Below are positions 2,250 to 3,975 of a stretch of 64,000 nucleotides of DNA, in pieces. Source of the DNA: Limnothrix sp. BL-A-16 (GTDB lineage Bacteria; Cyanobacteriota; Cyanobacteriia; CACIAM-69d). Made by a program: the position numbers and the translations under genes. A model generated the notes under the pieces. It ran no database searches. It was given only the letters and a program-made list of their open reading frames with translations, and had not been told where the DNA came from. The stretch spans positions 3,392,001-3,456,000 of the forward strand of contig CP166615.1 of assembly GCA_041937175.2 (NCBI GenBank), in the 5' to 3' direction. Every line of letters begins with the position of its first letter. The first letter of the stretch is position 1.

Positions 2250-2390
2250 TGCCTGTCGTCAAATCGCCTGAAACCCTGATTCCACCGTTGCTGGATCGTG
2301 GGGGACAAGGGGCTTGAGCATCTTGTTACAACGACTGGGACATGGAAAATCAATCGTTTTCACCTGATCCTAGGAAATGACGACAGGCCC
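2249..2390. mobile_element. MITE family A (142 bp; TIR GGGCCTGTCGTCA; TA flanks)
   Basis: gtgcctgtcgtca...tgacgacaggccc with internal caaggggcttgagcatcttg; homologous copies elsewhere in the window. Confidence 0.8.
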
Positions 2391-2398
2391 TTGTATGT

Positions 2399-2625
2399 GG
2401 AAGGCGGTGGAGCAGGAAGGTTAAGCTCAGGCATAATCGACCCTCTCCCATCCGGTAGAGACTCTGGACAGGCCCTGAAGCTCCGAAGCTTGAGGCTTAG
2501 ATTGAAGAGCCGACCGGAACCCGCCTTCCCGGACACTGCCAGTAGACTGAACAGTATTCAGAGTGACCGCTTGAGCGCTGTCACCTCGGATCAAGCAAGG
2601 GTAGCACTGGGTCAGTGACCGTCCC
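2399..2625 (+). ncRNA. IS110 bridge RNA (target- and donor-binding loops); ends approximate
   Basis: LTG GACAGGCCCT 2467-2476, RTG TTAG 2497-2500, LDG ACAGTATT 2551-2558, RDG GCAAG 2595-2599, each pair separated by a hairpin and enclosed by stems. Confidence 0.8.
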
Positions 2626-2646
2626 TCTTTCTTGTCCACCCCAACC

Positions 2647-3660
2647 ATGACTAATCCAATCTATATTCCCCTGGGCATCGACATCAGCAAACACCACTTC
2701 GATGTTGCCCTCTGCAAAGCACCCTCGACCGCTCGCAGCAAAAGTGCCTTTCACACCAGCCAGTTTGCCAACAACGAAACCGGATTTCACGAATTACTCG
2801 CTTGGCTCGAACAACACCAAGTCCACCACATTCATGCTTGCCTAGAAGCAACTAACATTTATGGTCATGAGTTGGCAGCCTTCCTGTATCAACGGGAGCA
2901 GCGGGTCAGCATTGTGAATCCTTCCCAAGTCAAGGGCTATGGGCAAAGTCGCCTGAAGCGCACCAAGAGTGACCAGGCGGATGCGGGAGTGATTGCCCAA
3001 TTCTGTCGTGACCTGACTCCTCCCCTGTGGGAACCGTTACCGGAAGCCCTAGAGCAATTGCAGCAGCTTTCCCGCCGCGTGGAAGCGCTGATCTCGATGC
3101 GGACTGAGGAGAAAAATCGGTTGGACTCTTGCCGTAATCCCCACTTACAGACTGATCTACAAGCCCATATTGCCTATCTGTCGGAGCGGATTGATGACCT
3201 AAAAAAGCTTATGCGCGAGCATATTCGCGCCCATGAAGCCCTTGCTCATCAAAGCCAATTGCTCTGCTCGATTGTCGGCATTGCGGAAACCACCGCCACC
3301 AACTTGTTGGCGGAGATTGGTGTGATTCAGCGCTTTGCTTCCGCTAGACAATTTGCGGCTTTTGCAGGTCTCACTCCCCGAGAATTTATCTCGGGGACAT
3401 CTGTTCGCGGCAAGACTCGATTGTGCAAAATTGGTAATGGTCGGCTGCGAAAAGCCTTCTATTTTCCAGCCTTGTCAGCCTGTCGCTATTGTCCTGAGAT
3501 TGCAGCATTTCGCAACCGATTAGTCGCGGCGGGCAAAACACCCATGCAAGCCATTGGCGCTGTGATGCATAAGCTGGCCAGGATTGTTTTTGGGGTGCTG
3601 CGGCATGACAGACCGTTTGACCCCAGCCAACTGGCAGTCACCACAGAGCCTTGCTCTTAG
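2647..3660 (+). CDS. IS110-family recombinase/transposase
   Basis: DEDD RuvC motifs [19 protein letters not shown]-terminal GLTP...SGTSVRG catalytic serine motif. Confidence 0.95.
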
Positions 3661-3975
3661 GCTTTACATTTTGTCACTTTCAGACCCTTGCGCCTCCTCG
3701 GCGAACACAGTATCTAGGCCTGGTTGTCACGCCCGATCGCTTGGGATGGGAATGGCTGATTTTTGCAGCCATATCCGTAGGGGTGTACCGCCGTATGCCC
3801 CTACCCAGACGCTCCTTACCCCCAAGATCTTGCAGCGACAAAATTAGGGTTTTGGGAGTGGCATGACAAATCCTCAACCCCTTTTTGATCGTGGACTGAT
3901 CAACCAGCAGCGACGGCCAAATCAGGGGAGCATCGCCACCGCCAAAACCGCACGAGAGCGAGAGTCGCAACAACC

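Follow-up and report, generated by a model that had tools for sequence, protein, structure and literature searches.

An IS621-like insertion sequence of Limnothrix sp. BL-A-16 whose predicted bridge-RNA guides match the tip of a MITE-like repeat

A 64,000-nucleotide stretch of the genome of the cyanobacterium Limnothrix sp. BL-A-16 (GenBank assembly GCA_041937175.2, contig CP166615.1, positions 3,392,001 to 3,456,000 of the forward strand; hereafter the window) carries, at window positions 2392–3713, what is very probably a complete, IS621-like insertion sequence (IS) that is guided by a bridge RNA and whose guides are matched to the tip of a repeat resembling a MITE (miniature inverted-repeat transposable element). 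The anatomy of the element, its copies and their flanks, the concordance between guides and flanks and the covariation of the helices around the guides were all read directly from the sequences. An earlier, sequence-only reading of the window had proposed a bridge recombinase of the IS110 family programmed against the terminal repeat of a resident MITE, and its claims are taken up below where the corresponding results are given.

Anatomy, genomic copies and guides

The element measures 1,322 bp and has a CT dinucleotide at each edge (2390–2391 and 3714–3715); terminal inverted repeats (TIRs) are absent, and each junction has one 2-nt CT core in 4/4 copies. The recombinase matches the Pfam families PF01548 (E 4.1e-29) and PF02371 (E 2.5e-24), scores 244 bits against the NCBIfam model NF033542, 'IS110 family RNA-guided transposase' (cut-off 140), and aligns through residues 9–328 to the IS621 recombinase (PDB 8wt6, E 6.5e-68), as well as to that of ISCro4 (9t56, E 9e-66). 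Residues D12, E67, D109 and D112 lie opposite D13, E62, D104 and D107 of the IS621 chain, which correspond to native D11, E60, D102 and D105, the numbering of the 8wt6 chain being shifted by two residues from the native one. Similarly, S249 lies opposite the serine of ESGSS in IS621, which is native S241. Hiraizumi et al. (2024) name D11/E60/D102/D105 as the IS621 RuvC mutant set, together with S241. The gene has an open reading frame that retains the catalytic residues. On sequence-level membership criteria the element is a member of the IS110 family, IS110 subgroup. The IS621 bridge-recombinase architecture that had been claimed for it finds support in the Pfam and NCBIfam matches, in the 8wt6 alignment and in a layout of guides that is the one Durrant et al. 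(2024) print for the IS621 bridge RNA.

Four copies of the IS are present in the 4.56-Mb genome and are 100% identical across the 1,336–1,340 nt aligned, and tblastn detected no other IS110-type recombinase in this genome. On the left, the flanks of 4/4 copies terminate in (C/T)GACAGGCC-CT; on the right, 4/4 copies run into a sequence starting with CT-A(A/G)G (CTAGGCC, CTAGGAT, CTAAGCC and CTAAGTC). Since the flanks diverge beyond this shared site, the copies represent four separate insertions into one type of site rather than duplicated blocks. Excision of 2392–3715, which had been said to restore the site, indeed leaves ...GACAGGCC-CT-AGGCC. The type of flank that the sequence-only reading would expect at the other genomic copies, ...GACAGGCC-CT-A(A/G)G, is found at all four, with none in an unrelated target.

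The left flank recurs inside the element. The 10-nt string GACAGGCCCT is found at 2382–2391, where it constitutes flank plus core, at 2467–2476 within the non-coding left end (LE), exactly where a match to the left target plus core had been claimed, and at 29965–29974 on the minus strand. Because three matches in the window compare with 0.09 expected, and 0/100 shuffles reach three, the repetition of the flank in the LE cannot be ascribed to chance. The target block of the LE reads ...CUCUGG-ACAGGCCCU-hairpin-GGCUUAG-AU.... Its right target guide had been correctly located as TTAG (2497–2500) but was drawn too short, the full guide being GGCUUAG (2494–2500), which is complementary to CTAAGCC at 7/7 positions. 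Opposite the second U of this guide stands A in two copies and G in the other two, and since U pairs with either base, one guide fits the two AA and the two AG flanks.

The joined ends of the element give the donor ACAGTAT-CT-TGTAT, as had been claimed, and the two strings previously matched to it, ACAGTATT (2551–2558) and GCAAG (2595–2599), both lie where they had been placed. They belong to a donor block reading ...CUGA-ACAGUAUU-hairpin-AU-CAA-GCAAG-GG.... Following the logic of handshake guides described by Hiraizumi et al. (2024), pairing is possible between the AU that follows the right target guide and the two final bases of the donor's left arm, and between the GG that follows the right donor guide and target positions 6–7 (CC). 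The features are collected in Table 1.

Table 1. Window coordinates of the insertion sequence, its guides and loops, and its target sites
Feature	Position	Strand	Remarks
MITE-like repeat copy, ~145 bp	2249..2390	+	TIRs G(T)GCCTGTCGTCA ... TGACGACAGGCCC; TA flanks 2247-2248 and 2391 + 3716
Left target ACAGGCC plus core (CT 2390-2391)	2384..2391	+	identical in 4/4 copies
Left end (LE), non-coding, 255 nt	2392..2646	+	starts TGTAT; predicted bridge RNA ~2399-2621
Outer helix, 5' strand GGAAGGCGG	2399..2407	+	pairs with CCGCCUUCC 2521-2529; encloses 5' hairpin and target-binding loop
Target-binding loop	2451..2518	+	basal helix 2451-2465 with 2506-2518; central hairpin 2478-2491
Left target guide ACAGGCCCU (7 nt + core CU)	2468..2476	+	repeats left flank plus core, 9/9
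Right target guide GGCUUAG, then handshake guide AU	2494..2502	+	reverse complement of CTAAGCC
Donor-binding loop	2530..2621	+	outer helix 2530-2543 with 2606-2621; inner hairpin 2561-2587
Left donor guide ACAGUAUU	2551..2558	+	7/7 plus wobble; last U faces G opposite core C
Right donor guide GCAAG plus handshake GG	2595..2601	+	GCAAG pairs with CTTGT with one G-T
Recombinase gene, 337 aa	2647..3660	+	alternative TTG start 2632; DEDD D12/E67/D109/D112; serine S249
Right end (RE), 53 nt	3661..3713	+	terminates in ACAGTAT; -35-like TTGCGC 3688-3693
Second core CT (3714-3715) plus right target AGGCC	3714..3720	+	
Unoccupied target GACAGGCC-CT-AG	29963..29974	-	tip of another full repeat copy

Related elements and the predicted bridge RNA

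Relatives were sought in 401 genomes of the phylum, 13 of which gave a match at E <=1e-40, and in a species-genome collection (23 loci). Their recombinases are 44–64% identical to that of the window element and come from other cyanobacteria, a metagenome-assembled genome (MAG) of Abditibacterium, and others. The ends could be placed for 12 elements, the window element counted in, and these constitute the set in which guides and flanks were compared. All of them (12/12) have ACAG(T/C)AT-CT on the right and CT-TGTAT on the left. The flanks of the relatives vary and include ACGCACC-CT-AC, CGTGTCC-CT-AC, CCCGCCC-CT-AC, GGTGTCT-CT-AC and AAACAAG-CT-AC among others. When the 7-nt left target guide is read at homologous columns and set against the flank of its own element, the mean agreement is 5.9/7, with at least six matches in 10/12 elements (individual values 7, 6, 7, 3, 6, 1, 6, 7, 7, 7, 7, 7), as compared with a mean of 2.44/7 and a maximum of 6 when guides are set against foreign flanks (126 pairs). 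The right guide contains GUAG in all relatives landing before AC, and UUAG in the window element, whose insertions precede AA or AG. In 10/12 elements, target position 7 can be paired by the first handshake base of the donor loop, once through a G-T wobble and, in L012, through C-G.

In the related element of an Oscillatoriales MAG (L025, 893–976), a tandem duplication of 42 bp comprises the left target, CT and the first 32 nt of the LE. In L010 (1351–1458), ACTCTCG occupies the place of the right donor guide ACAAGG of other relatives, which makes this copy possibly defective.

The helices around the guides covary. The three enclosing stems claimed in the sequence-only reading all appear in the minimum-free-energy fold of the LE. 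RNAalifold, run on a MAFFT alignment of whole LEs, recovered the 4-pair central hairpin alone, with two-sided changes in 4/4 pairs; since MAFFT misaligns the variable helices, the sequences were folded with the guides held open. Under this constraint, 12/12 sequences form the basal helix of the target loop and, according to the cut folded, 11 or 12 of them form the central hairpin, while the donor loop adopts the same layout of basal helix and inner hairpin in 10/10 sequences folded. A covariance model was built for the target loop, the donor loop being judged by constrained folds without a formal count. The model retrieved 16 loops in 26 sources, including four outside the seed (L008, L011, L019, L038 from Neisseria), and on the 64-kb window (model R1) it gave one match, a seed sequence. 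In the resulting 16-row alignment, 75.1% of the cells are paired, as against 54.8% after shuffling, and 0/500 shuffles reach the observed value; two-sided changes occur in 16/18 pairs, and partners slid by 1–3 columns give 31–51%.

The landing-pad repeat

A blastn search of the genome with the 145-bp unit into which the window copy is inserted (window 2247–2391) returned 304 high-scoring segment pairs, 98 of them at least 125 nt long, with identities of 79–94% among the matches listed. The unit ends in a 13-bp TIR (GGGCCTGTCGTCA / TGACGACAGGCCC), and in 11/13 strictly matched TIR pairs, with sizes of 141–142, TA stands outside both ends, and may be either a true target-site duplication or the mark of a preference for TA. 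The repeat has no coding capacity, and its copies abut one another over one shared TA. Because TA flanks the TIRs, the IS target has a core CT made up of the inverted repeat's last C and the T of the TA. The IS copies occupy three different end subtypes of the repeat family, which implies that the tip is recognised and not the interior.

Sites of this type are abundant. The 11-nt target ACAGGCCCTA[AG] occurs unoccupied at 80 positions (41 on the plus and 39 on the minus strand), as compared with 5.1 expected by composition; of these free targets, 70 come after GAC[GA], 52 go on with G and 34 with GCC (A[AG]GCC). The 14-mer of the repeat tip has 71 occurrences in the genome, and the pattern read backwards has none. 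The free perfect target that had been claimed on the minus strand (Table 1) is present, at the tip of another full copy of the repeat. In G220, the sole genome of the same family that was searched and itself without the IS, the 14-mer occurs once. The expansion of the repeat looks lineage-specific.

The earlier reading had identified the landing site as the right TIR of a MITE plus its TA flank. This was borne out as to the site, but the repeat proved more complex than a simple MITE, its family comprising 68-bp tandem units and an associated palindrome. The IS may be as described and the pad a REP-like (repetitive extragenic palindrome-like) or composite repeat family, for which 'MITE end' would be a mislabel. 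Such an interpretation is encouraged by the tandem units and by the tips themselves, 39/136 of which are followed by TAAG(CCCCTTG), half of the perfect palindrome GGGGACAAGGGGCTTAAGCCCCTTGTCCCC, an arrangement suggestive of repeats that are nested or chained through insertion at the central TTAA. It is encouraged also by the failure of a TIR-pair search to find an autonomous MITE partner in this genome, where the only TIR pair 0.5–4 kb apart, considered as an autonomous element, turned out to be a chance match inside a gene, and by the absence of the TIR motif from the three IS630-type (PF13358) loci. We nevertheless regard it as unlikely, since 98 near-full copies of one ~145-bp unit, 13-bp TIRs with TA on both sides at sizes of 141–142, lack of coding capacity and copies abutting over a shared TA are what is usually asked of a MITE.

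Three observations on the repeat may be added. The 68-bp sub-unit (window 2245–2312) is represented in RNA-library contigs of two runs by a joint that goes back 68 nt, from 2312 to 2245. At C1:1639695 (minus strand) of this genome, CT, TGTAT and TGTATTTC come after a repeat tip, TGTAT being the first five nucleotides of the LE without the IS, and the same tip-CT-TGTAT-TGTATTTC sequence is found in a metagenome contig; the TGTAT at this position may be due to chance (~0.13 expected over 136 tips) or may be the trace of an abortive event. Finally, the stop codon TAG of trpB (window 2247–2249) takes in the TA flank as well as the repeat's first base, and the landing-pad repeat apparently lies at the very ends of genes.

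Proposed mechanism, mobility and known systems

The circle, the use of its promoter, the production of RNA, the exchange of strands and any benefit of landing in repeats are carried over here from IS621. By this analogy, the element would leave as a circle in which the right end (RE) is joined to the LE over one CT, and the junction would place the -35-like TTGCGC of the RE 17 nt from a TATCTT that spans it. A non-coding RNA of about 220 nt might then be made from the LE off the junction promoter. Its donor-binding loop (ACAGUAUU / GCAAG) would hold the circle junction ACAGTAT-CT-TGTAT and its target-binding loop (ACAGGCCCU / GGCUUAG) would hold ACAGGCC-CT-A(A/G)GCC, whereupon the DEDD/Ser recombinase would exchange strands at CT. 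The target consists of the last bases of the TIR together with its TA flank; where the fit is best, it reaches into the beginning of the adjoining repeat unit.

The description of the MITE as a 'safe harbour' and of the IS as 'retargeted' belongs to the same inferred scheme. It is tempting to speculate further that the guide fits more than a repeat, being adapted to a junction that nothing but another transposon can create, namely the last base of the MITE's TIR, its TA duplication and the opening bases of the following repeat unit, the latter being reached through the GGC extension and the GG handshake. The IS would then be a parasite of MITE insertion sites, the U of the right guide, by accepting both A and G, would widen the pool of sites, and the expansions of IS and MITE would be linked in this lineage (71 tips against one). 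This proposal is tentative, and we hold it to be somewhat less probable than not.

The sequence of the predicted junction promoter had been given correctly, since the circle would join TTGCGC (3688–3693), exactly 17 nt and TATCTT (TAT + CT + T). The five nearest relatives (L024, L025, L026, L006 and L007) have TTG(A/C)nn 17–18 nt before a junction TATCTT, and more distant ones have a hexamer 17–18 nt before a TAT(C/G)TT lying inside the LE. According to Durrant et al., a promoter is reconstituted over the core when the circle forms.

The IS was found whole in 14 DNA runs from lakes and other freshwater sampled in 2020–2024, some of which are possibly the source of this genome. In one DNA contig (X1), the right side of the IS runs into CT-AAACCCCTTGTCC...; in another (X10), the left flank is a different MITE-end subtype (...CACCTCGAAAT-AATGACGACAGGCC) and the right one CT-AGGCCCCTTGCTCC.... 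Neither context is occupied in this genome, and the predicted target is present at the X10 flank context and at the X1 right flank. Taken with the fact that the copies are 100% identical, these other contexts point to recent movement, always into the same type of site.

Several observations weigh against the view that the element is a complete, bridge-RNA-guided IS. At homologous columns, the guides of L007 (1/7) and L026 (3/7) do not match their flanks; that of L026 fits if a one-base bulge is allowed, and the mismatch in L007 is without explanation. In L007 (from G089), the guide GAAACCC-CU stands against the flank ACCGCGA-CT, with GAAACC located 4 nt further out; this insertion may be off-target or rearranged. 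The fold energy of the whole LE is unexceptional when compared with shuffles (z -1.3), and an Rfam scan of 2000–4200, with E up to 10, returned no bridge-RNA family and three chance-level matches to unrelated families. The pairing figures for the target loop favour the structure, because the alignment was fitted to it and 12/16 rows are seed sequences. The junction hexamers are weak (3/6 and 4/6 to consensus), and a sigma-70 scan of the integrated sequence gave 0 promoter-like sites (1.0 expected). Two metatranscriptome libraries contain contigs over the LE (2388–2599 and 2371–2836) and over most of the gene; one LE-covering contig continues into the flank, and libraries of this type can contain DNA, so that DNA may have been carried over and the coverage is no proof of transcription. 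Stretches of the gene that lack such coverage are equally uninformative. Neither the circle junction nor an empty-site allele was seen in the contigs of the four runs compared, two RNA and two DNA metagenome runs, the comparison being of contigs, not reads, with RNA ends that are unusable. Lastly, all four IS copies lie on the plus strand of the chromosome, in unexplained contrast to the even distribution of the free targets, and just 4/84 target sites are filled.

The weak promoter, the few filled sites and the failure to see circle or empty site in the four runs would equally suit an IS that is intact in sequence but immobile in this organism, the match of guide and target being a fossil of past activity. 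This we consider quite improbable, in view of the complete identity of four copies over 1.3 kb, the open frame with its catalytic residues, and the other insertion contexts in metagenome contigs of several years; moreover, Hiraizumi et al. (2026) report that weakly expressed bridge RNA and inefficient excision are normal for IS621. It is hardly credible that the common flanks arose by duplication or recombination of repeat-plus-IS blocks rather than by guided insertion: copies 1 and 4 do have in common ~80 nt of similar left flank, and repeats favour recombination, but this flank is the MITE itself, at 92% identity against 100% for the IS copies, copies 2 and 3 have left flanks of other end subtypes, all four right flanks diverge directly after CT-A(A/G)G, and the LE guide predicts exactly the common 9–11 nt.

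An IS621-like element guided to repeat tips, which is the reading we prefer, has close counterparts. When the entire element was searched by blastn in all complete E. coli genomes, nothing matched, and the comparison with IS621 was therefore made by eye on the supplement of Durrant et al. (2024), which provides the wild-type IS621 bridge RNA, a programmable template, the target ATCGGGCCTAC and the donor ACAGTATCTTGTAT. The claim, made in the sequence-only reading, that IS621 uses the same donor was correct, the 14-nt ACAGTATCTTGTAT being identical. The two elements further share the pair of domains, the catalytic residues, an upstream non-coding LE, the CT core, a presumed -35 in the RE facing a presumed -10 at or after the junction, and the order and spacing of the guides (in turn, a left target guide of 9 nt, a hairpin, the 9-nt block ...UAGAU, a left donor guide of 8 nt, another hairpin and GCAAGG(N)). 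They differ in target (ACAGGCC-CT-A(A/G)GCC in the window, ATC(G/A)GGC-CT-AC in IS621), in right guide (UUAG versus GUAG) and in donor-loop handshake (GG versus GU). In addition, the window element has an extra outer helix round the 5' hairpin and the target loop, and its proposed -10 (TATCTT) spans the junction, whereas that of IS621, judging from the printed donor, lies inside the LE. DNA similarity is below detection by blastn. The pad, too, is different, a cyanobacterial MITE-like repeat in place of an enterobacterial REP; Choi et al. are said to have reported in 2003 that IS621 lands in REP sequences.

Two IS110-family elements of Pseudomonas putida, ISPpu10 and ISPpu9, are reported (bioRxiv 10.64898/2026.03.19.712850; PMC12288879) to insert in one conserved intergenic repeat or REP. 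Like the window element, they have all their insertions in multiple copies of one repeat; for their target, a GC-rich stem-loop is described as a second layer of specificity.

Elements of the IS1111 subgroup carry their guide RNA at the opposite end. IS4321 and IS5075, of this subgroup, are reported to target the inverted repeats of the Tn21 family, and IS1383 those of IS1384. These belong to the same superfamily and likewise use the TIR of another mobile element; they are directed at large transposons or at an IS, whereas that of the window element is a miniature element with about 100 copies. In the legible portions of the supplementary target lists of Durrant et al., ACAGGCCCTA and the window target loop have 0 occurrences, and a survey of titles and abstract openings in the literature on IS110, MITEs and cyanobacteria disclosed no such case.

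The targeting of repeats and transposon ends by IS110 and IS1111 elements is already established. The present element is a clean natural example of a known mechanism and leaves the picture of that mechanism and of its target preference unchanged. What it appears to add is a fully intact and recently active natural bridge recombinase from a cyanobacterium, which shares its donor with IS621 but not its target. With four sites filled and 80 natural ones free, a single genome offers a convenient natural data set for the evolutionary reprogramming of the target loop, in which one change from G to U in the right guide accompanies the shift from AC to A[A/G], as well as for the tolerance of wobbles in guide–target pairing, the extension of guides and the handshake bases.

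No stop-to-stop frame of at least 80 codons runs across the restored sites of the copies at 438674 and 2154186; across that of the window copy runs one minus-strand frame of 107 codons, and across that of copy 2 two plus-strand frames of 194 and 271 codons, none of them established as a gene. A plus-strand open reading frame of 275 aa at copy 2 (L002 2771–3598) has no Pfam match, and the adjoining minus-strand frame (L002 2834–3343) matches no family above cut-off; the TAG stop of the latter (L002 2834–2836) is formed from the CTA of the IS target. In keeping with a cyanobacterial host, the genome as a whole has five Photo_RC matches and 5,235 HIP1 octamers, as compared with ~70 expected.

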